Shown: one piece after another, positions 30,319 through 55,490 of the stretch
Numbering within the stretch: the stretch's first letter is position 1
Layout of the letters: each line of letters opens with the position of its first letter
Source of the DNA: Phoronis australis
Taxonomy: Eukaryota; Animalia; Phoronida
Direction of reading: 5' to 3'
Length of the DNA: 64,000 bases
Assembly (NCBI GenBank): GCA_002633005.1
Contig: NMRA01000430.1
Location: forward strand, 62,001-126,000
The notes under the pieces: model-generated
Databases searched by the model: none
What the model saw: the letters and a program-made list of their open reading frames with translations, nothing else
What the model was told of the DNA's origin: nothing
Translations under genes and position numbers: made by a program

Positions 30319-30516
30319 ATGGCGCTGATTAACCCAGTAGTTCAGCTTGCCAATGTGGCCAATCACAAGGACTCGCGTTGGCTGACATTAGAAGTTTGTC
30401 GTGAATTCCAGCGAAGCAAGTGCTCGCGCTCGGATCAAGAGTGTAAGTTTGCACATCCCCCACCTCACGTGGAAGTACAAAATGGCCGAGTCACCTGCTG
30501 CTTCGATTCAATTAAG
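30319..30516 (+). CDS. MBNL: Muscleblind coding exon 1 (ZnF1 and start of ZnF2)
   Basis: [66 protein letters not shown], donor gttagt. WLTLEV box and CX7CX6CX3H finger. Confidence 0.97.
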
Positions 30517-35541: not shown

Positions 35542-37958
35542 CTGATGTAGCTGTGTGTACACGTAGTCAGCAAACTACCTACTGTTTGTTTAATTAACTT
35601 GAAATCCCTACTGCACTGTTAATTGTTTTCCGATCCTTCTAAAATAACCTGGGTATTCTAATTCGAATGTTTAACTACGATCAGAAAATATTTTGAAACA
35701 GCGTGGGCTTTTACAACAGTGTTGGAAGACCTTGATAATCAAAAAATAGAGCATTTTTGGCAATTATTTTTGTCTGAAATTAGTGAGATTTTACTGTATT
35801 TTGTGTTCAAGTCTTTTACTTGCAAGATATCAGTGTTGTGGACATTCTGATTTTTGTTATGCTGGGGATACAATAGTGTTGACATTGTATTTTTCAGGTT
35901 ATTCTGCGACCGCATTATTTGTGTTCCCCTGCACTTTCTACACAGCTAACTTTTACCAGTCTCACTCAATCTTAACTTTACAACGCTTTATTTCTTATTT
36001 CGCATTTGACAATTTTCTCCTAGCTTGAATGTTACCAACCATTGTTCGGTTGACTATAAACAGACTGCAGATGGAAATCAGCCTTGTGGGAAAATCTTAA
36101 ATAAGATTGATAGGGCAGTAACCTTTTTCAAAACACTGAATTCTTAATTTGGATAACATCGTCTCTTGGTTACCATTGCTATGCCAGCTAGAGTGAGATT
36201 GTTTTGTCATGAAACAAATTCATTTTTTGTGTCCAAGTGATGGAAGAGAAACATGTCCTGGTTCCTGTTCGCATGTAACGGCTCGGCTCATGCCTTACGC
36301 TCAAGTGCACTAACAAGTAGGGCATAATGCTGTGTACTAAACACGCAGGGCTGGCATATAATGGTGTTCAGTACTAAAACAAGTACAGGGCTGGCACATA
36401 ATACTAACAAGGCTAAATGCAAGCTGCCTGTGGAACCTTGAATGTTGGGACAAAATGATCAATGGTATTGCTGAAACTTACTGACTAACACTGTCTAAAC
36501 TTGAATAAAGTTGTGTATTGTTTGGCTTGGCTAATCTTGTCAGGAAGGAATATTCATTAAATTGATCAGCTTAGTGCCCTGGTATTGTAACACAAGCACA
36601 CAACATAGAGCAGGGAATTGGAACTACTGACTGAATCATTTATGTATATATTCCAAACTGTTGTGTATCTTAACAATATTGACATTTTGATTAACCCCTA
36701 AATCTCCGAAAATGAATAATTAAACATATTTCATGGAATGGATATCTAGAATAACGGAATGGGAGCATTTTGTGTGAAATGTTATTGTGAGGTGCGTCAA
36801 AGATGGCCATGTAAAGTGAGTATCAGGTACGGTCAGGACTGGGGGGTCTCGCATAAGAGGGAGTTGTGAGCTAAAGATAAGTGTTGGCTTCCTGTAACTA
36901 GGTTATCTTAATCCTACAGTTGACTGAAACTGTCCTTATCACTATACTTTAGGTCATAAGACTTGGTGTCAATGACAAGCTCATCTGCACATGTTAGCAT
37001 AACCCATGTTAGGAATAACACTTAAGTTACACATTGATGTATGTTGTAGACTTGCTGTATTCAAATTAATTTGAGCATGTTTTGGAAACGGTGGCAGCCT
37101 GGTGGAAAACTCACCGTAGACAGGCGTCCCAATGGGAACTAAAAATTGATAGAGATCTTCCTTTACGATCCGTTGTTACAGTTCATAACTTAAAAAGCGA
37201 GGGGTTTTAACCACGGTTATAAAGTAGGCCTGCAATAAGTTGCTGTTACTATACTGAACTCTTGATATGTTAGTCATATTTTGAATTCAGACATTTCTTT
37301 GTTTTCTGCTGGTACCTGTCCCCACATTTTACTTGAAGGTCACAAATTTTACTTGAAGGTCACACATGTGGAAGAGCTAAATTGGTACCTCCAGCACATG
37401 ACTCTATCCTTCAATTTATTTTGGTTTCTGAATTTGTTGCAAATTGTTGGTATTAACTTAGTACCAGCAGGTCATGCAGTGTTTCTGTTTGGTGGTTATG
37501 CCTTAGTTCTCTGAGTGGAATCTTGCTGTCTTTGTTGGAAATGTCCTCTGGCAAATATCAGTTTTTTTCCAGATTTGTTGAAATTCTGTCAAATATAATG
37601 TGCTGAAATGTGAGACTACAACAAATGCTTGAGAAAAAGTTTTGAGGGTGAATTATGTGTCGTCTTGGCTACTTGTTTGTTGGTATTGATTATAATTTTG
37701 ATTTGACATTCTTAAATGTCATTCCCACTAGAACGCAAGTAAATGTGTCATGTTTGAATTTATGATTTCTCATTTTGTCTGTAAAAATCGCGCTGCTGGT
37801 GCCCACATACAGATCTGGTGACACTTATTTCCATTTTGAATTTGATAGCATAGATTTGATAGCATAGATTTCTTCCCACGAATAACAACACCTAATGAAT
37901 TTCCTTTATGATCGACGTATTTCACATTTAGACGGCGGAGTCTTGGTTACACTTTCAG

Positions 37959-38135
37959 GGCAAGTGTCAGAGAAAGGACCCTCCATGTAAATACCTGCAT
38001 CCGCCACAACACCTACGAGAGCAGTTGTTACAGAATGGCAGAAATAACCTGATCTTGCGAAACATACAAATGCAAGCATTGGCAGCCCAGGTGACGACAG
38101 GGATGCCCCCTATGGTGCCAAGTGTGATGCCTGTA
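37959..38135 (+). CDS. MBNL: Muscleblind coding exon 2 (rest of ZnF2, NGRNNL box)
   Basis: Acceptor tttcag, GKCQRKDPPCKYLHPPQHLREQLLQNGRNNLILRNIQMQALAAQVTTGMPPMVPSVMPV, donor gtaagt. 177 nt, phase 0/0. Confidence 0.96.
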
Positions 38136-41100
38136 GTAAGTCACATTTTGTATTTACCGCCCTCTGGTGTCTACTTATGGAGGTTCTATGTGAGCATCAA
38201 AAGAATTTGTAAGGCAAGGGACTATTTGAATGAGAGTAATTCTGACGGGAATGTGTTAAACGCCTGTGTTGAAGTTTTAGACAAGTTGATGTCTGCTTTA
38301 ACTGTTCAGGTGAAGCAACTGTAAGCATGCGACAAATTTTTTAATAAAATTATCTTTGTGATTTAGGTTGAATTGAAAGCTGATACTTCGTAAACAAGGC
38401 TTTCAATGGTATCGATGCGAAAAGTATTCCTTCTCCACCTGTTTATGGTGGGCCACATTGTTGTTTTTGTGGCCTCATTTTAAAGTCATCGTTTGCAACA
38501 CCTATGTTGGTTGCACGCTACAGCCAAATGAAACGGAAATATCCTGAAAGAGGAAGCGAAATTTTGTTGTCACTATTTTTCATTAAGCAATAATTTCTGT
38601 TTCTTTCTCAGTGGTGAATTGAGCTTCAATGTATTGTAATATCTTCCGGAACTGTTCAGTGTTGTTGGTTTCTGGTGTGCTTTCGTTGTAGAACTATACA
38701 TTTCTAGAAGTCGTGCGTCAAATATTCCTTTTTTGACAATGGCGTCATTTTTTTTTATAAATGCAGACATCATGCTGTGTCACATCCACTTTTGTCCGCC
38801 ATATTTTTGAACAGACTGCTGTTGACATGTTCATACTTTAGACAGGAGATAGATTAGTGCAGTGAGCCTGATCTGCTGGCAACACACTGTGTGAAAGGGA
38901 CAGCAGACTTCAAAGGGTTTTCAGGGGTCATCAGACATGGGTTGGACTCCAGGGCATGATACTCTCAAAGGCTCCCTTGTTTTACCTCCAAAACATGGTC
39001 ACTGGGGGAGGGGGTCCTTGTTTTCATCTGTGATCCTGCCTCTTTTAATCTACGAGATCTGAAGGCTGTGTGTTGTGTATAATGTAATCAGCTCAACTGA
39101 AGTTGGCTAGTGGATATGTTTGTACATTTGATCATGAGTTGACATTATGTACACACTACACTAAGCCAACATGACTTCAACACTTGATCAGCAGGAGACC
39201 AGTGTCGCCATGCAACTTCCAAGTGTTTTTGAGTTTCCTACTCCTACTAACATATTTTTCCGATTGTCGGTATTTTGGTTACATGCCAAAGATTGACATT
39301 AAGAATAAGTGATCTATTAACTTCCCTTTCCTTTTTTTCATTTCTGGCATACGATGCGAGTGGTAAACCGATCTCATATTCAGCAGCCATGATTCCTGGA
39401 CAGACATATGTGGTAAAGTTATCTTAATCGTTGCTTGGGGCCGCTACTTCTGCTTTGCTGAAGCAGGATTGCATAGTAAAAAGACCTGGAATCACTCTCA
39501 ATACAAGTGATATGCCCAAAAGTGTTAACAACTTTCCCAGAAAGCTTATCGAAATTGACAATTTTTGGTTGAAAAAGGTACTGATTGTTTCAATCGCTAA
39601 AAGTCTAAACAATTTCTGGATTTGTCATGTTTAGAAAATAGTTTTATTTGGAAATAAAATGTAACACACTCCCAAGGTATCGGGTATGTTTACATTAAAA
39701 TGGTGCGCGGGATCATAACAATGCCTTGAAAGTTATTTGATGAGCGCTAAGCCATTCTGAATCTTATAGATTTGAAAAAAATGTTATCAACAAATCACAT
39801 TATTTTGTGAGTTAAAACAACAGTATCACTGACAAAAACAACCATTTGTCTAGTGTTGGTCCTTTTCGTCTGTATGTTGGCCTTAATGGTCTGTCAGAGG
39901 CGGGGTATTGACTGGTCTGGTCAGTGGTAAAGAGCGATTCCTTGGTTTTCAGTTGAGCACACCGAATGCTTACTTCCTGTGCTTCCCAAAATGCTTTGCA
40001 GTAGTCCTAAAATGGCATTGTCTATTGAATTGTCTCGGGAGCTTTAAACTGTCCATGATGGATCCATTCATTTTATAATAATTTAACAATGGTAATGATT
40101 GCTACTGATGGCACACGTTTTGTCATTGTGTCGTTGCTAGAGGACCTAAGTCATCCAGGGTGCGCTGCCATGGGAGTTGTATACGAGATGTGCCACTCGA
40201 ATGGGGGGCTTTTTTCACGACCAGTGTTTCTGTTAAAGGGTGTCCTTATGTCAAAACTTTCTACGGAATGGTGCATTTTCTGATTTAGTTTCCTACAAAA
40301 GGTTCATTTAGGGAGTTAAAAACTTAAGCAAGGGAAACCATTTTCTTACTCTGCGTCAATGCGCAGAAGGATTTTTAATGTTTCCTATATTTTTTAAAGC
40401 TTTGATTGCCAAGGACATGCTCATTTTTGTCAACAAGGAATCTTTTATACTGTTTCAGGCTTAAAGGGTTGAAATGATGCCTGTCTAAGAATCTTGCAAA
40501 GGGGTTAGGTTTTTGTAAGGAACAAAAAGTGTTTCTAGACCAAAACTCTGCAAAAGGGTGACTTTCATGGAAGCTCTCTTAATGAGTGATTACCTTTTCC
40601 AGCTACTTCCCAGTCTAATAATAGTGGAGCACCCCTTGGGCTAGACTATGCCAGTCGCTCTTTGATCACATTTGACTACAGCATTGACACAGAACCCTGT
40701 TTCTTTGGGTCAGTCTCGTGATTGAGCGTTTTCTTCACTTTTTGGAAATTTCTGTTTACGTTTTTGTTGCCACTAAATGCGGATGCCAGTCATGTGACCA
40801 CGCGCTCACCTGTTCTATCTTTTGTGCTTGCTTTGCAGCTTCTCTCTGTTCAAGCGCCACGTAGATAAAATTCTAGATTTTTTATTTTTAAAAGAATTGT
40901 GTAATTGAGTACTCCTAATTTGTAATGTCTGAATACTTGTTAATACATAACTTAATAGCATCTCAATATTAATAATGAATTTCTGAAGTCTTGTCTCATT
41001 TTTGAAATGTCCAATCCGTTTTTTCCCATCTTTGTTTAAAAGTTAATAATCTTGATGTTTTCATTTCAAAGTTGGTGACCGTAAATCAAACCTCCTCAGT

Positions 41101-41289: not shown

Positions 41290-41478
41290 CAAAGTCCGTA
41301 CATCGCTGCAGCCTCCAACAGTTACCCCTACAGTGCCATGACCTCGATGTCCGGAGTTCTGCCCAGTGTTGCCACCTCTGATCCTAGTGCCATAACACAG
41401 CCACAGGCGGCTGCTTCGCCTAATTCCGTCACGACTACCATGCCAGCACCTAAGATGCAGCGACCAGACAGACTGGAG
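41290..41478 (+). CDS. MBNL: Muscleblind coding exon 3 (linker ending PKMQRPDRLE)
   Basis: Acceptor ttgtag, QSPYIAAASNSYPYSAM...PAPKMQRPDRLE, donor gtaaca. 189 nt, phase 0/0. The KxxRxDRLE|V junction is typical of MBNL. Confidence 0.92.
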
Positions 41479-42994: not shown

Positions 42995-43231
42995 GTGTGC
43001 CGCGAATTTCAGCGGGGCACTTGTACTAGACACGCCAACGAGTGTCGTTACGCGCACCCACCCGAAAGTGTCTGTATTGAGCAAACTGACAACACAGTAA
43101 CAGTCTGTATGGACAATGTAAAGGGCAAGTGCTCCCGGGACTCCTGTAGATATTTCCACCCCCCTGCTCACCTACACGCTCAGATTAAAGCAAACCAGCA
43201 AAGAGCTAACTCTGCTGCTGTGCAAGCAATG
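42995..43231 (+). CDS. MBNL: Muscleblind coding exon 4 (ZnF3-ZnF4)
   Basis: Acceptor tttcag, [25 protein letters not shown]...[45 protein letters not shown], donor gtagga. 237 nt. Confidence 0.97.
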
Positions 43232-43316
43232 GTAGGAACATCCAGCTAGATCTCTTCACTTTGTTCTTTGTCTCGTGTTATTGTATCTCTAGTGAGAACA
43301 AGCCCCTGTGTCCTGT

Positions 43317-43885
43317 CCTGTCAGACAGCCATGTCTGCTTCCAAATGGACCTGTCGGACAGATCCAGTACAGCCATGCTTGGACTCTAAGTGGACCTGTC
43401 AGACAGACCCAGTACAGCCATGCTGGCCCCTAACTGGTTCTGGCAGACAGACCCAGTACAGCCTTGGTGGCCACTAACTGGTCCTGTCAGACAGACCCAG
43501 TACCGTCATGCCTGGCCTCTAACTGGACCTGTCAGACAGACCCAGTACAGCCATGCTGGCCACTAAGTGGTCCTGTCAGACAGACCCAGTGCAGTCATGG
43601 TGGCCACTAACTGGTCCTGTCAGACAGACCCAGTACAGCCATACTGGCCCCTAACTGGTCCTGTCAGACAGACCCAGTACAGCCATGGTGGCCACTAACT
43701 GGTCCGTCCTGTCAGACAGACCCAGTACAGTCATGCCTGGACTCTAACTGGGCCTGTCAGACAGACCCAGTAGTCATACCTGGCCTCTAACTAGTCCTGT
43801 CAGACAAACCCAGTACAGCCATGGTGGCCCCCTAACTGGTCCTGTCAGACAGACCCGGTACAGTCATGCCTGGCCTCTAACTGGA
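43317..43885. repeat. About 43-bp intronic minisatellite (CCTGTCAGACAGACCCAGTACAGCCATGCTGGCCACTAACTGGT), about 13 copies
   Basis: Head-to-tail copies with no unique spacers. Confidence 0.95.
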
Positions 43886-44807
43886 TTTTCCGCTGCCTGT
43901 GGCTCCCTCTATCAACCTACAACAACTTTCGTAGCTTGTCACTTTAGTTTGCATGTGTGAAAGCCTGCTTGTCTGTTCTTAGTACCTGAGTGTATACCTA
44001 GCCAGATGAAGTTATAAAATGTACAAGTACTTCATTGAATGTCGTCTGCTTTGGTCAAAAGAAGCCCACATTCACATGGTCCTGTTATCACTAGAGATGT
44101 GTAGAGCACCATAGCCAGCACTATAGATATGGTACAGTGATGAGTCACTGTCTGCTTCAAACTGTGACAGAGTGTCGGCTTGCTTCTCTTCTCATCATCA
44201 ACATGACATTCTGTTGTACTACAACTTTGCCTACAGCTTCTCTGTATTTCAGTTAATTGTTGGCGGTCATGACACTCTCAAATTGATGCTAACCGACAGT
44301 ATTAAGTCGACTTAATGTTGTAACTTTCAGATATATGATAATTGACTCTTAACATTACTGGTGCAGTACTGTTGACCTTGTATCGTGTTTATTTGTCTAT
44401 TGTTCAGCTCAGTTTCAGTCTCCTGCTTGCCTTTCAATTCATGTGTAGCTCGCACACACTACTGGCAGGTCCTTGTCCGGTGGTCGCTGCCTGGACCTGC
44501 TCTGGTCATGGTCATATCAGCCTGTCCTGTTACAACTTCTGTGCACTAATCCTGCAGTAATGTTTTTGCCTGTTAGTGTTATGACACTGTGTGTTTCTTT
44601 TGAAGTTTATATTGAAAGGCATGTGGGTTGAAGTTGAGCTGTATTTATTTATCGCATGTTGGTTGAACATGTCAACTCAGATGGTGCTTTTTCTTTTTTA
44701 TTTTATCACCCATCGTGCCTTGCCGCTTGCCTGTGTCATGTGCCGCCATCCCTGCAAATGCTGCCATTTCATTGGCCAAAATGCCATCGTGCTCGCATAC
44801 TAATTAG

Positions 44808-44873
44808 CCGCCAGTGGTTGAGGTCAAGACAGCCCTGAAGCGACCTCGTGACCCTGCAGACGATCTCGTTCTG
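44808..44873 (+). CDS. MBNL: Muscleblind 66-nt cassette (NLS) exon, PPVVEVKTALKRPRDPADDLVL
   Basis: Acceptor taattag, donor gtacta, phase 0/0. LKRP basic motif; same position and donor as recalled for vertebrate MBNL1 exon 5 (KSLKRPLEATFDL|gtacta). Confidence 0.85.
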
Positions 44874-47592: not shown

Positions 47593-48018
47593 TGCCCGAT
47601 TGCATGAAACTGCCAAATAGAGACTCAACTAAGTTCCTATATCACCTGCGTATTTGCGGACTTGTGAAAATAATGATTGTGTTTCCTTATGCTGTTTTAG
47701 TTTCATTGCTAAGTCAATTTTTGATTTTGATACACATATATGGTGAATCCTACGTAGAATTCTCAGGATTATCGAAAGTAAATAGGGATCTTTTCCTGCA
47801 ACGCCCCTTATTTAAGGACTAAGTCCCTAATATTTTTTTCATCAAACTCAGGGCTCAGTTTCCAGTTATATTAATAGAAAATGACATTAGTCAATGAGAA
47901 GCTAATAACAAAGATGAAATGATAAAAAGGATTGCATCTGTGAGTAAAAAACGACAAAATGCACAAAAGATTTAGGGAACTCAGTTAAGTGCCTATTGAC
48001 TGTTTCATGCAACTGGCC
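47593..48018. mobile_element. Harbinger-like MITE
   Basis: About 45-bp imperfect TIRs: GCCCGATTGCATGAAACTGCCAAATAGAGACTCAACTAAGTTCC versus the reverse-complemented right end GGCCAGTTGCATGAAACAGTCAATAGGCACTTAACTGAGTTCC. Confidence 0.65.
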
Positions 48019-48237
48019 ATTGGGGTCTGAGGTCTGACCTATTAACCTCACCCTTTCCTGTATGTCAGGCTGTGTATAGTGCTATAACATTTTAGTCCAG
48101 TGATTTAAGTTCAGGTTTGCCTGTGGATTAAATGAGAAGTTTTAGCCAGTGTTAGACCACAAAAATGACACATCTCTCTTGCTGTATGTCTCAGTGTTTG
48201 TTTACTAACTGCCCTTCGTCATTTGTTCCCCATCTAG

Positions 48238-48427
48238 CAGTACACAGGAGGCTTGCCACAGACAGCTATGGGTTTCCCACCCACCATGTTGAACTATTAC
48301 AAGAGACCAGCGCTGGCCGATGGTAAGAGTGGCCTCCCAGTCTACCAGCCTGCTACGGTGGTCAACTACCAGACACTAGCAGCCATGCAGATGGCCGGCC
48401 AGCCGCAGGCGTACGTGCCCATGTCAT
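48238..48427 (+). CDS. MBNL: Muscleblind exon with the KRPAL motif (NAGNAG acceptor; alternative start 48241)
   Basis: TACTAAC at 48203, acceptor tag/cag, QYTGGLPQTAMGFPPTMLNYYKRPALADGKSGLPVYQP...QAYVPMS+T, donor gtaagt. Phase 0/1. Confidence 0.92.
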
Positions 48428-49778
48428 GTAAGTAGGTCACACTAATGCTGCCTGTGTAGAGCGTTATTGCATGAGTTCTCGGTTGAATGCACCAATTGAC
48501 CTATCTCCAACTGAATGTTTTGATTGCATGGTCGGTCGGAGCATGGTTATGCGCTCACATGTTATGTGGTCGCATATTGTCGTCCTGTCCCAGTGGCAGC
48601 ACAATATCTTAATAACGGCTGGTCGCATCTTAGTGAAATATGTTACCAGGGTGTGGGCCATCAGTAGAGTGGTGCACAACACTTTTCAATCTGCTCCCAG
48701 GGCTAGAAGGCTGGCGTTTTCAGTGTTTTGTTTGAGGGATGAGTGTTTCCAAAGGAAATCTATAGAACTGATGGACAGATTTCAGCACACCCTTATGTGT
48801 CTTTTAGTCTCAAGGGTTTTTCAGTATCTTTTGGGAATGAGCATTTCCGAGTCATATCTCAAAAATTGGTCCGTCAATTTTAATAAAACACAACAGAGAG
48901 GTATCCGATGTCAATGTGCTGACACCAGTCAAGTTTTGGGCAAATTTGAATTCTGATCCCCCTCAAATCATTTTTCTGTCTGCCTTTGTGCCTGCCAGTC
49001 TCGGATGCCTAGTGCTTTTTTCCTTTGTGGCATTTTTTATATTTTTTTGTTGAAAATGTTGAAAACTTCATTTTTGACTTGATCTTAGTTTAAATGGGAA
49101 GATGCCTTGAAGGCTTATGTCAATTTGACTACTACAGCTCCTCTGTGTGTCAAAATGTTGTCTCCTAGTATTTCACATGAAGCTGACGATCACCCCTGGG
49201 TAAATACCGTTTGCTGTGTACAGTGGGTACATATCCATGCATTGGTCTGGTTAAATTTAGATGCTATCTATTAAATATGCGCCCATGATCATTAGAGCTT
49301 GCCAGAAGTTATGATGAAGAATGCAGAGCTGTTGGTTGTTTGGTGATGGGTCAAATATGTGAACTATGGAATGTATGCTAGCTTTATACTCAAATGTTAT
49401 CTGGCTGGGTTGCTTTGTGTGTTTTTAAAACTCTTTATGGACACTTAAATTTTCACATTTTGTTGCTTTTCATGTACCTTTCACTAAGTATTTTTATTTT
49501 AAACAAAAAGTTTTTTTTCTCATTTCAACAACTCCTCGTGTGACACCTGTTTGTTATATTTTCACGTCTGGCTGTTACTACTGCGCAATGCTGTCACAAA
49601 CAATTGTCTCAATTCTTCCCGTTTGTTTTCATTGAAAGACGCTTTCTATCTTGTTGATTACGAAAGTATTGTATTGGTTGTTTTGTGCATGACTATAATT
49701 TGACAGCTTGTGACTAACTACTTGGTGTGTTTCATTTCATATCTGATTGCCTGCTGCTTGCATGCTTCCTTTTCACAG

Positions 49779-49894
49779 TGCCCTTTGTACCCACGCTGCA
49801 GCCGTTAGGGGGCGCCACCCCCGCCCCTGGTGCCGCCACCGCTCACCTCGTTACTAACGCCTCTAGCGTTGTTTACTTAGACGATAACAATCAG
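49779..49894 (+). CDS. MBNL: Muscleblind 116-nt frame-shifting exon, LPFVPTLQPLGGATPAPGAATAHLVTNASSVVYLDDNNQ
   Basis: Acceptor tttcacag, donor CAG|gtagtt. Phase 1/0 links the KRPAL exon to the ZnF5 frame; GC-rich against AT-rich flanks. Confidence 0.88.
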
Positions 49895-49942
49895 GTAGTT
49901 TATCACTTTTTGGCTACCCTACATGTGTTGCTAACAATTTAA

Positions 49943-50398
49943 AGGTGAACTATCCCTGGTTTCTTGTGCTGCTTCTAACAACCAATAATCTAATAGATTT
50001 TGGCTCTTGAAGAGACCTGCGCTAGTTTAGTCGTTTCTTATCATCCCTTGATCAGCCGCATAGCCTGGGGTAGACAAATTCTGTAGCTAAAGCTAAACGG
50101 CTTCAAAACGCTCTTGGATTTTAACCAAGTCAAGTGTGTATTTGCAACAGTTGAAGTCAAATGAAATTAACAAGACTTACTGTTGAGTAGAGACTACAGA
50201 ACTGTTACCAACTTGTGTGTTAAAACCCGCTGTCCCAAAATATTGAATTACCTTTTATCAATGGCTGACTGTAGACTTGTTACTGCTTGTGGCCAGCGCA
50301 GTGCTTACGGACTTAAAACACTGTCAAAATGACATGTTGAATTTTGTTTTGAGCAACTCATACAGGTATCAGCCCTGGGCTATAGGGATAGTTCCTCT
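49943..50398. mobile_element. Kolobok-like MITE with TTAA target-site duplication
   Basis: TTAA-AGGTGAACTATCCCT...AGGGATAGTTCCTCT-TTAA. Confidence 0.7.
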
Positions 50399-52077
50399 TT
50401 AAATGCATTTTACAAACTAAAAATGTGAATAAAAAAGCAAAATGTCAGCTTTTCCGTACATGGTAGTCCAAAGTAGTCAGTGTTTTCTCGAGTACGTAAT
50501 CGCTTATTTTTTTTGCTAAGAGTGTGCGTTTTACAGTGCTTGCATGGTGCCAAATGCAGCAGTAATGGTCTGTTTTTCAATCTAAACTTAAATCTGTTGG
50601 CCTGATCTTTCACAACATTGTAACTCACAACTGTTGGACAGTGTTCAACGTAGATAGATTACACACTACTTTACAGATCCAACAAATTTCACTTGCTCAA
50701 CGACTGTTTATTAACATTGAACCAAATTACTACAAAGCTAGTTTTTGTGTACTGTGGAATTTCATCAATTTTGGACACAGTATGACAAACGCATGAAATT
50801 TTATTTTCTCATTTCCATACGTTATGAAGCACCAAGTTAAATACCGTTCCATGTTCATATTCTGTACTGTAGCTGCCATCAGACAATGATTTTGAAAATA
50901 AATTGTGAATATTCGCAGCAATGTTACATATCTTGAAAAAGTACAATTTTTGCGAATTATTTTTGTCTAAATTTCATGATATTTTATAGTACATACATTT
51001 TTTCAATGAGGTTTTCCTCTTTGGCAACCATTTAGAAGAGAAGTTGTCAATCATGGAATGAACAGGATATGACTGTGAAGTATTTTGAACTTATCAACCT
51101 TAAGTTGACGTTAAATAGAAATCCTGTGAAAGTCATAGCTCTGCAGTTAACCTCAAGTGGCATTTCAAGATAATAAGCTGCTTTTATGACAGCTAGACAT
51201 TGCAGGCGGCACAAAATGTGAGTCCAAAGCAAAACAAAATGTGTTAATAGAATTTTTACTTTAACATGGAAGAATTACAAATTGCCCTTTCACGGAGTCT
51301 TCGTGTGATTCTTGTTGGTTTAGGTCTTGCACTGACTCTGGTCAAACTTCTCAGGGAAAAGCCTTATTTAGAATAAATGAGCAATGCCAATCAAGTTGGT
51401 TTGAGATCTGACTAATCTGAGAATTGCTGTATGTGGCCAGCAGGTTGTACAGTGTGTGTAATACTGGCTTTGTGGACTCGCACGATTTCTCGAGAATGTG
51501 CTTTCCTAGCAATAAAACTTTATTTTGCACTCTCACCTACATGAAAAATACTGTCCGTAAAGAGTGAAAATGTACTTTGATACACATTGTACACTAACTG
51601 ATTTGTAATAATTTGAACGTACGTAATGGAAAGAGAGTGAAAATTACCCGTTTCTTGCAATGAACATTGTGGGAAGATAACGCCTGCATGATGTGGCGGT
51701 GGTCCCCAACTTCACATGGAAGTTGTGACAAAACATATCACTGACTATCAACTTCGTTTCACAATACTTGCTGCTAAACTATAGATAGTTACCGTTTGGT
51801 TCACATGCCTGCACACCTGACTAGTATGTAAATGCTTCATTGAGGTAAACCACCCTGTGAGTCATCTTTCGTCAAATAACTTTTTAACTTTCGATGTTAA
51901 CCCCCTGAAACTGTTGTTTCTTTTATCAAAATTTGAAAGAAAGTCTCAATCAATGTTCCATTCCTTTTTAAAATCCCCATTTTTGTTTTACACTTGAATT
52001 TTGAATTCTTGGATTGAAAATTTCATCAAAAACAATAGAAACTTTCATTTCAAAAAGCATGCTGCACTTGTCTTTGA

Positions 52078-52222
52078 CCTGTTATTAGACTGTATTAACC
52101 TGGTGTTAGATCATGTTAACCTGGTAGTAGGCTGTACCTGGTGTTAGACTGTATTAATTTGTTGTTAGACTGTATTAACCTGTTGATAGACTGTATTAAC
52201 CTGTTGTTTCTGTTGTATTAAC
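52078..52222. repeat. About 21-bp degenerate tandem repeat (CCTGTTGTTAGACTGTATTAA)
   Basis: About 6-7 visible copies. Confidence 0.8.
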
Positions 52223-52488
52223 AAGTACTGTCATGGTCATGCTATGTGCTGGAAGTTGTCACCAGCCAGGCCGCGTTAATAAATGTCTCCGACATGCATT
52301 TTGTGACATGTATGACATATTAGTGTTTTTCGCACTATTACCGGGTATAAATGTGTAATAGGCAGTTGAAGTAGTTCATTCGTAATGAAACAGCTTTTAA
52401 TCAATGATGTTTACGATGGTGTACTTCTTAGTCCTCTCCATTTCATAGGGCTGTTCTGTCAATTGAACACACCTATATTCTGTTCCAG

Positions 52489-52573
52489 TTGCTGGACACC
52501 CTCCCAATATGCCGCGATTTTAAAGCTGGCCAGTGCACGAGGCCACAGTGCAAGTATGTGCACCTTGTAGAGG
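52489..52573 (+). CDS. MBNL: Muscleblind dual-frame exon: ZnF5 (LLDTLPICRDFKAGQCTRPQCKYVHLVE) or the terminal peptide FAGHPPNMPRF*
   Basis: Acceptor ttccag, donor G|gtaagt, 85 nt. CX7CX4CX3H in phase 0; stop at 52521-52523 when entered in phase 1. Confidence 0.92.
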
Positions 52574-53249: not shown

Positions 53250-53359
53250 AATATGTTGAAATCACAGATGGAAAGGTAACAGTATGTCGTGACGCCGTCA
53301 AGGGGAAGTGTGTGCGGCCATTGTGCAAGTACTACCATATCCCTTTGGTGATCCCATAA
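53250..53359 (+). CDS. MBNL: Muscleblind last coding exon (ZnF6), EYVEITDGKVTVCRDAVKGKCVRPLCKYYHIPLVIP*
   Basis: Acceptor ttttctag, phase 1 entry, CX7CX4CX3H, TAA at 53357-53359. AATAAA at 53526. Confidence 0.93.
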
Positions 53360-53842
53360 CTCCAGTGCTCTCATCCAGTGTGCCATATGATTGTTTTATA
53401 CCTGACAGGTGTCACCTGACATCTATCTGTCACTCAACATAGTGCTCTATTAATTAAACTGACTATATAGCTATTTTAATCAATTTTGTTCAAGTTTTGT
53501 TTGCATGGATTCTTTGATAACTTGAAATAAAACATTTTTGTGGTGAGAAGTGCAATCTCCCAATATAGAGTGCCATATTTTGTATATCACATTTTGATAC
53601 AAAATTGTTTACAGTTGGTGTTACACCATGGTTGGAGTCCATGCATTCAGCACATGAAAATAGTTGTAGCCTATTGATTATAAACTTTTTGTGTATAGTA
53701 CGTTTTGGTTAAAGTAGTTTTTAATTGTGTATGTTATTATTCCCAGAGGTGCCCCCAAAACTAAGAAAGTCCCACAATATGGCTGTTTTTATTTCCAAAT
53801 ATCATGTTGATCATCGTTTGCCATATCCACATTTGAAGCCTT

Positions 53843-54045: not shown

Positions 54046-55313
54046 CTTTGAATCAGCTTACAGGTCATGCATGGTGTGATGTCTGCTGTGCCTGTGATTA
54101 GCAACTTGACTGTCGCACTTGAATCCTAATTTATCTGTTATCCACCTGTAGCAAGTTTATTCTCTTACAATCTTTGGGGACAATTTTTACGTCAAGTCAG
54201 TTTTTAAAGTTTCTGACCTACCACATTATTTTATTTCGTATAATTTAGAATTTTCAAGTTTTGTGTTATTTTTTGGTTGTCCTTTTTGTAGTGTATTGTT
54301 ACAGTCAACCATTTTATTCACAGGTTGTTCAGACTCTCACTGGCTGTATTGTCTGAAGTGGACTAGTCAGTGAGTTGCATACAAACAAAGCTGTCTCACA
54401 ATATAATTATAGTATTCACAATGCTGTGACAAGGAGGGCATTCAACAACGCTGGTTATGCGTGGCACTCGTTGAGAATTGTTGGGTTAGTCAACACACTT
54501 GGTGGCCGCTGTTGCTGCGTTGTCCTCTTCCAAAATTCAACGCTTCACAGTAGCCAACTCGGGCCTGTAAATTTTTAAATCTACTTAAAGTAGCTACATT
54601 TATAAAATGTTACGAACTTTGAGCATTTAGTTCTCTTTAAATTCAGTTGAAAGTAAAAAACTTTGAAGTTATCAGCATTTTTGAAGTGTGATTCCCAAAG
54701 TTTGGGCACAAAAATCTAATAAGTGACCAAAATAGTCGAGAGCGCATGGTTCGACCAATAAGTCATATCATGCTGGTAACAATTGTAATGAAAAAAAATA
54801 TTGACTGCAATATGTATCATAACATGACAAGCTGAGTCGTTAATGGGCGCTTTTTAGTTGTTAATGATTTCAAACTAAAATTTGTTGTTTTTGGATTTAC
54901 CATGCCATCTTTTGATTGAAGTTAAACTTTCCAAATTCTTGGAAGTCATTCAAGTTATAACTTGCAAAATACAAGTTTTCGAGGTGAAAGTTTCAGATCA
55001 TGTGCCAAACTGGTTGTCAGCCCTGACAATCACATTCACATTTTGATGGTGTTGGCTAGCATAGCTGTAAGCTTACTCGCGAAACACTGGCAAGATGTTG
55101 CATTACACACGTGTGATCTCACGAGACTCACAAGGCACTTGCCTTGTTGAACGCTGTCCTCGTTTTGTTTACGGTAACAAAAGGTACTGTTATATCATTG
55201 TTGGAATGCTGCTCGGTGGGGAATTACTTGTAATTAATTATTCAATACGGAGTGACCTTTAGTGAAGCTGTAGACTGCAGCAGAATGATGGCAGCTAGTC
55301 ATTGGTTAATAGA

Positions 55314-55490
55314 TATCTTGAGTTGGTAGCCATCTTGAGTTGGTAGCCATCTTGAGTTGGTAGCCATCTTGAGTTGGTAGCCATCTTGAGTTGGTAGCCA
55401 TCTTGAGTTGGTAGCCATCTTGAGTTGGTAGCCATCTTGAGTTGGTAGCCATCTTGAGTTGGTAGCCATCTTGAGTAGGTAGCCATCTTG
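55314..55490. repeat. 17-bp near-perfect minisatellite (ATCTTGAGTTGGTAGCC), about 10 copies
   Basis: Visible directly. Confidence 0.97.

Follow-up and report, generated by a model that had tools for sequence, protein, structure and literature searches.

A dual-coded muscleblind exon of Phoronis australis and its probable descent from an ancestral zinc-finger-number switch

The 64,000-nucleotide (nt) stretch of Phoronis australis DNA analyzed here (contig NMRA01000430.1, positions 62,001 to 126,000; the window) carries a muscleblind (MBNL) gene of ten exons, A to J, on the plus strand, with coding sequence from 30319 to 53361. Near the end of the gene, a 116-nt cassette (exon H, of length 3n + 2) precedes an 85-nt exon (exon I) that is read in two frames. 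It is probable that H is usually skipped, so that the protein ends in a short tail, that a rarer and likely cell-type-restricted inclusion of H yields a third zinc-finger pair, and that MBNL likely helps to repress H. The switch in the window is the orthologue of the published Drosophila AE3 switch, and its core is therefore already known. Newly added here are the findings that the third pair forms one clade from corals to lamprey and that the MBNL2 degron is likely a decayed sixth zinc finger (ZnF6).

Exon H sets the reading frame of exon I

Exon H (49779 to 49894, plus strand) has AG/GT ends and runs from phase 1 to phase 0. When it is included, exon I (52489 to 52573, plus strand) reads LLDTLPICRDF, the start of ZnF5; when exon G is joined directly to exon I, the same bases read (F)AGHPPNMPRF, an 11-residue tail followed by a TAA stop at 52521 to 52523. 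Splicing was assessed in three raw RNA runs (X2, X3, and X4) from one study with the same species label, of which ∼18 to 19% of each run was sampled, and in a set of RNA contigs (X1) aligned alongside them; a splice joint was listed only from 3 reads in a run. The skipping joint G-I (48427-52489) was found in 34, 27, and 134 reads of X2, X3, and X4, respectively, and the inclusion joint H-I (49894-52489) was found in 0, 5, and 0 reads. The skip form thus accounts for 195 of the 200 junction reads into exon I. The initial annotation had proposed that the 116-nt exon is alternative, and both outcomes are indeed present in RNA; because inclusion amounts to 5/32 reads in X3 versus 0/168 in X2 and X4 together (Fisher P = 8e-5), H is a real, rare, and sample-dependent cassette. 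Of the joints by which that annotation suggested checking the switch, the skipping joint and the H-I joint were seen, but the G-H joint is not among the joints listed for the three runs. Consequently, neither the full inclusion path nor the six-finger mRNA could be traced over its whole length, and inclusion rests on five reads across one joint in one run, which weighs against the proposed switch.

Products of 455 amino acids with six fingers and 363 with four had been predicted. Both frames exist, but these lengths hold only when exon C (39347 to 39412) is left out; with it, the inclusion and skip forms have 477 and 385 amino acids. Furthermore, because the commonest path skips exon E, which encodes the second finger pair, the contrast of four with six fingers describes minor forms. 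The D-G joint has 16, 19, and 174 reads in X2, X3, and X4 versus 8, 12, and 22 for the D-E joint, and the commonest path, without E and F, encodes a two-finger protein of 284 amino acids that carries the tail; the same path is present in an X1 contig.

In flies, exclusion of AE3 gives mbl-C, whereas including it moves the reading frame so that two more fingers are encoded (mbl-O/P). The two proteins are both detected on Western blots; photoreceptors are the main site of O/P, and C is found in neurons and muscle (Pamudurti et al. 2022, PMC9352392). The following mechanism can be proposed for the window. MBNL, with Rbfox-type factors, would bind between a distant branch point and the acceptor and keep H out in most cells, so that skipping is the usual outcome and the protein ends in the tail, and a cell-type factor would admit H, as in the photoreceptors of flies. 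Inclusion would complete the third finger pair, which may widen or lengthen the RNA footprint, and the tail might, as a guess, act as a C-terminal stability or binding signal. Because both mRNAs have one common 3′ untranslated region (UTR), the switch would alter the protein rather than the fate of the mRNA. This UTR is long, running from 53362 past 57700, with a step up in read depth near 55300 to 55400.

Control of exon H

The sequence of the H acceptor fits control by MBNL, a family that binds YGCY RNA and regulates splicing (PMC5041496). The motifs that the initial annotation described there are present: TGCCTGCTGCTTGCATGCT (49748 to 49766, plus strand) contains predicted MBNL sites (YGCY at 49748, 49752, 49755, and 49763) and a predicted Rbfox site (TGCATG at 49759), and GACTAAC (49712 to 49718, plus strand), a predicted distant branch point or QKI/SF1-type site, begins a 70-nt AG-free zone upstream of H. 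Four YGCY within 19 nt are found at 0.02% of gene positions. The 50 nt upstream of the acceptor hold four YGCY at H and four at exon F versus none or one at the seven other acceptors, and exon H itself contains eight. Of the four intronic clusters with at least 4 YGCY in 30 nt, three lie beside cassettes C, F, and H. The H acceptor is also built like that of exon F, a long AG-free zone with a YGCY cluster; the zone upstream of F is 125 nt long and holds 11 YGCY. Homologues of exon F are autoregulated in worm and mammals (PMC10773944), and in mouse, the 95-nt Mbnl2 exon is repressed by MBNL1, which binds in its vicinity, with support from individual-nucleotide crosslinking and immunoprecipitation (iCLIP) (PMC9943662).

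Expression in X4 is ∼five-fold higher than in the other runs, and inclusion of E, F, and H is lowest there. Skipping of E and F is strongest in this run (P = 1e-3 and 1e-5, respectively), as expected for autoregulation. H inclusion is zero in this high-expression run (0/134) and also zero in the low-expression run X2 (0/34).

Alternatively, muscleblind might have no part in regulating exon H, the switch being real but governed solely by cell type, through Rbfox, QKI, or promoter choice; we regard this as a serious possibility, although somewhat doubtful. Several observations point this way and count against a role of MBNL. At similar expression and with matching F inclusion, X2 and X3 nevertheless differ in H inclusion (0/34 and 5/32, respectively; P = 0.02); hence, MBNL level alone does not set H inclusion. 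The fly isoforms are cell-type exclusive and tied to different promoters, knockdown revealed no crosstalk between mbl-C and mbl-O/P, and overexpression of MBL-C left O/P, which is very low there, unchanged in the brain (PMC9352392). TGCATG and ACTAAC lie in the same acceptor, and YGCY is enriched in any pyrimidine tract. Conversely, the YGCY clusters are found at cassettes C, F, and H and not at constitutive acceptors, the mouse homologue is repressed by MBNL1, and the run with the highest expression has no H inclusion and the lowest inclusion of E and F. Taken together, the motifs and the comparison with mouse make it somewhat likely that MBNL is involved in the control of H, as a repressor acting together with cell-type input.

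Conservation of the tail

A search seeded with a profile of six C-termini (mollusc and chelicerate among them) found 785 proteins. Among the 120 matches listed, 118 end in a GHPxxxPRF tail; they span molluscs, nemerteans, and arthropods, and insects, myriapods, and nemerteans are among them although absent from the seed. The two misses are a third-frame model and a partial protein. Conservation of the tail frame, on which the initial annotation had staked its case, is thus borne out among these matches, as is its statement that insect isoforms end in FTGHPPGVPRF (37/120). A search with the tail region of Haliotis gave 10 matches, 9 of them named molluscs, and the MblC-specific sequence is reported to be the most conserved (PMC2238819).

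With the finger frame given and synonymous codons drawn at random, the core G-H-P-x-x-x-[PQ]-R-F-stop would arise with a chance of 3e-4 to 2e-3 per lineage. In a position table of 31 tails, the filter fixes positions 2 to 4 and 9 to 11, so that only position 5 and positions 6 to 8 are informative: position 5 is proline in 28 of the 31, and positions 6 to 8 vary, which implies that third codon positions are free to change there. Arginine 10 of the tail is never glycine or a stop, the two other options; because it is kept while the finger frame varies among R, Q, and K, both CGA and AGA codons are needed. Judged by this pattern, exon I is under selection in both frames.

Other observations tell against this conclusion or limit its reach. 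The search, being seeded with tails, favors tail-bearing isoforms, and the codon comparisons come from protein isoform pairs rather than from orthologous DNA. The core departs in Mytilus (GQPP), the tail of the fly Eurosta is one residue longer, and the frames of Dreissena, a barnacle, and flatworms depart from the core or cannot encode it. In a search seeded with fingers, 10 of the 42 finger frames cannot encode the core; 7 of these 10 are of the LLE[ST]LP type, and the two named species among those 7 are flatworms. In addition, three horseshoe-crab proteins have valine for glycine, and three proteins have HH. The core is impossible from the finger frames of hemichordate, echinoderm, tunicate, and coral, and the lamprey frame permits it, but none among the lamprey isoforms listed carries it. 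The tail core therefore looks protostome-specific in the sequences compared.

These departures bear on a second alternative, namely, that the tail is a by-product: the fixed third positions of exon I would be maintained for an RNA element, either a splicing enhancer or a structure, and nothing but the early stop would be of consequence. Several lineages do depart from the core, the fixed positions adjoin the acceptor, and the tail has no function shown. Nevertheless, the third positions alternate, with tail positions 3 to 5 and 9 to 11 fixed and 6 to 8 free, and arginine 10 is kept while the finger frame varies, so this alternative seems unlikely.

Two further explanations are highly improbable. 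Under the first, skipping of H would feed the mRNA to nonsense-mediated decay (NMD), making the exon a level-control switch. The switch stop does lie 50 nt upstream of the last junction, as the initial annotation noted in placing it at the NMD boundary; however, the skip form is the main mRNA rather than a depleted one, in flies, where the shared exon likewise has 85 nt, the skip form yields MBL-C protein in abundance, and a conserved peptide is unexpected on a decay substrate. Under the second, the third pair would be vestigial in Phoronis australis and H inclusion splicing noise, which would account for the scarcity of inclusion reads and the unlisted G-H joint, but every CCCH residue is intact, the third pair is 84% identical to that of a spider, and H retains the conserved motif N-x-S-V-x-Y-x-D-x-x-x-Q.

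The third finger pair and the vertebrate 95-nt exon

Annotated proteins with six fingers come from corals, molluscs, chelicerates, a barnacle, a tephritid fly, a hemichordate, an echinoderm, tunicates, and lampreys. A tree of 49 finger pairs (64 columns) unites 14 of the 15 third pairs in one clade (support 100/99) that reaches from corals to lamprey and contains the pair of the window. On this tree, the third pair has a single origin that predates the coral/bilaterian split, in line with the ancient age that the initial annotation had assigned to the arrangement. The fifteenth, an extra pair in a Lethenteron protein (P0022) encoded by a second lamprey gene, was considered as a third pair and rejected; it is a separate duplication of the first pair and falls outside the clade. 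None of the 76 jawed-vertebrate matches of the homologue search has more than four fingers, and because lampreys keep the third pair, its loss can be placed in jawed vertebrates. Thus, the proposal that vertebrates kept the switch exon stands, but the accompanying proposal that they lost the third pair applies to jawed vertebrates only. A literature search, with most subscription journals outside it, returned no account of a third MBNL pair in lamprey.

The switch exon appears to contribute more than a frame. In the model of a six-finger spider protein, the predicted local distance difference test score (pLDDT) is ∼90 to 97 over residues 371 to 440, a stretch that takes in the final ten residues encoded by the switch exon, and a beta-bridge joins residues 376 and 382. 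Given this confidence in a homologue, part of the third domain is predicted to come from H (its last ∼12 codons). Two side observations concern the same region in other animals. Two alternative ZnF6 endings are present in Ptychodera (P0001/P0011) and in Amphiura (P0006/P0017), which suggests a duplicated, mutually exclusive last exon in ambulacrarians. In three arthropod models (P0336, P0345, and P0356), phase-0 upstream exons are joined straight to the ZnF5 exon, which provides another route to the third pair without the switch exon.

In lamprey, a 32-residue segment ending in ANQ lies directly before ZnF5 and matches the peptide of the pig 95-nt exon (0/2000 shuffles reached its score). Exon H of the window matches the pig peptide at 1/2000 shuffles and the lamprey segment at 3/2000; the match to shark is weak (150/2000). 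The genomic exon borders of the homologues were deduced from isoform pairs. By position, phases, and sequence likeness, H is homologous to the vertebrate 95-nt exon, and the homology posited by the initial annotation gains from the finding that lamprey carries that very exon directly before ZnF5. The mark on which that annotation had relied, GATPA, was rejected: it is absent from the switch segment in 13/13 other six-finger or third-pair proteins.

In models from lamprey and tunicate, the ZnF5 exon is also skipped, and the protein ends in IMLK or ILLK; in addition, some lamprey forms are joined directly to the ZnF6 exon. Both outcomes recur in MBNL2, as an IILK end or a tail starting with DNSEII. 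The lamprey pair (NQ followed by IMLK-stop, and DHVEIV) and the MBNL2 pair (NQ followed by IILK-stop, and DNSEII) each correspond to two frames of one exon start. Such a two-frame reading is possible for 7 of 7734 six-mers from 16 proteins, and 6 of these 7 are the starts of ZnF6 exons. When skip tails of the MBNL2 type were scored on a ZnF6 profile, lungfish gave 16.8 bits (0/1000 shuffles), Diretmus gave 8.5 bits (2/1000), and turbot gave 6.1 bits (19/1000). For each of the four tails with a score, the ZnF6 profile ranks above the five remaining finger profiles, and the controls (the inclusion-frame tail and the 95-nt peptide) remain at background. Weighing on the other side, the rabbit tail is weak (3.0 bits, 33/1000), and the medaka tail (P0082) has no score on the ZnF6 profile. 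Overall, the last exon of jawed-vertebrate MBNL2 looks like a decayed ZnF6 exon. The Mbnl2 skip tail is a PEST degron (PMC9943662), which, with an exon of this likely ancestry, would be a fossil finger. Jawed vertebrates would then have kept H, as the 95-nt exon, and the ZnF6 exon while losing a functional ZnF5, and the degron of MBNL2 would have arisen from the decayed ZnF6 frame. The same literature search found no description of the MBNL2 tail as a finger relic.

In the window, the other frame of exon J (53250 to 53279) gives NMLKSQMER-stop, which is reminiscent of the IMLK-stop of chordates. No H-J joint was seen in the RNA runs.

Gene structure and the exon C acceptor

Among the proteins searched, the closest to the window gene product are gastropod and nemertean muscleblinds (55 to 58% identity), and the gene has MBNL-type tandem CCCH finger pairs with the WL..EVC leader and the NGR motif; its first finger pair is 92% identical to that of Mercenaria. 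All exons lie on the plus strand. The coding part of exon A (30319 to 30516, from the ATG) encodes ZnF1 and the start of ZnF2, and loose ends of reads at 37957 correspond to its 3′ end; exon B (37959 to 38135), placed by RNA and sequence, completes ZnF2. Exon C (39347 to 39412) is a 66-nt in-frame cassette with a TG acceptor (33, 36, and 120 reads for joint B-C and 4, 12, and 48 for the skip B-D in X2, X3, and X4), and exon D (41290 to 41478), defined by RNA joints, encodes a linker. Exon E (42995 to 43231), a 237-nt in-frame cassette, encodes the second finger pair, ZnF3/4, and is mostly skipped, with inclusion of 8/30, 12/45, and 22/216 reads in the three runs. Exon F (44808 to 44873), a 66-nt cassette, carries a KR (nuclear localization) motif and is included in 10/33, 13/42, and 18/206 reads. 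Exon G (48238 to 48427), again placed by RNA and sequence, ends in phase 1 and carries a second KR motif, so that the double motif lies on adjacent exons, of which the first is alternative. Beyond the switch, the coding part of exon J (53250 to 53361) encodes ZnF6 and serves as 3′ UTR in the skip form; the I-J joint has 28, 27, and 126 reads.

A few features of the introns and splice sites were noted in passing. The exon G acceptor is a NAGNAG (48238 to 48241), and its downstream AG is used by 4 reads in X3. An intronic repeat at 47600 to 48030, to which reads align on either strand with numerous mismatches and a joint on the opposite strand, is likely a dispersed inverted-repeat element. A tandem repeat of ∼42 to 45 nt was noticed by eye at 43300 to 43890, in the intron that follows exon E.

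The main acceptor of exon C is TG, in a GT..TG intron (38135-39347) supported by the B-C reads given above and by an X1 contig; a minor GT..AT joint at 39342 has 1, 2, and 5 reads. No AG partner joint is listed for exon C in the RNA runs, and the nearest upstream AG is 35 nt away. Human TG acceptors, according to the accessible portion of PMC2374985, occur only beside an AG partner. A polymorphism in the individuals that supplied the RNA may lie behind the apparent TG acceptor. Peptides similar to that of exon C are found in P0312/P0313 and in Littorina, and four YGCY lie just 3′ of the exon.

Comparison with known systems

The comparisons above make it reasonably probable that an ancestral muscleblind had three finger pairs and a switch gating the third, that protostomes acquired the tail on the ZnF5 exon and chordates the I[ML]LK-stop end on the ZnF6 exon, and that in jawed vertebrates, ZnF6 became the MBNL1-controlled degron of MBNL2. 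If so, the compensation loop relevant to myotonic dystrophy would be a direct descendant of a finger-number switch, the age of which we take to be >550 million years. A likely origin would also be at hand for the two elements that control MBNL2 compensation in models of myotonic dystrophy, the 95-nt exon and the degron tail. Most worth following are the ancestry with three pairs and the likely derivation of the MBNL2 degron from a finger. Dual coding of exon I across protostomes also offers a testable conserved peptide, the end of fly MBL-C, a role for which was not found described in the literature search. Reviews give MBNL one or two finger pairs (PMC13044900 and PMC10773944, in their accessible portions); to these, the present data add a third pair that is ancient in its own right and is gated by an overprinted exon.

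The closest known system is fly AE3, likewise a cassette that shifts the next exon, also 85 nt by junction coordinates, between a short end and two extra fingers. In a D. simulans isoform (P0353), the 20-residue peptide before LLDTLPVCQDFN aligns to H (0/2000 shuffles), and the finger frame aligns to exon I. The two systems differ in that H has 116 nt versus ∼59 nt for the fly cassette, as estimated from that peptide, and in that the window has all three pairs in one gene path. The fly papers, in the portions accessible, are confined to flies and count a second pair rather than a distinct third; MblF, for example, is described as having a divergent C-terminal tandem zinc finger (Irion 2012, PMC3315501). 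The fly isoforms are cell-type exclusive; inclusion of H in the window is sample dependent (0/34, 5/32, and 0/134).

Exon F of the window is the KR/nuclear-localization exon of MBNL genes (vertebrate exon 5 and C. elegans exon 7; PMC10773944). That exon is in frame and controls localization, and autoregulation is proven there, whereas for H it is a prediction.

Mouse Mbnl2 exon 9 and human MBNL2 exon 8 (95 nt) share with H a homologous position and phases and also switch C-termini, and the mouse exon is itself repressed by MBNL1. In MBNL2, skipping gives the long PEST tail, inclusion gives the short IILK end, and there is no third pair (PMC9943662, which in its accessible portion does not link the PEST tail to a zinc finger). 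Polarity and outcome differ from those in the window, the ZnF5 exon having dropped out of the path. Finally, human dual-coding regions have been reported to include MBNL1 and MBNL2, with the region of both listed as preserved across vertebrates (bioRxiv 10.64898/2026.05.28.727796); the region concerned is a different exon from exon I, namely, the last one, ZnF6 derived by our reading, and the accessible portion of that report gives it no invertebrate ancestry.

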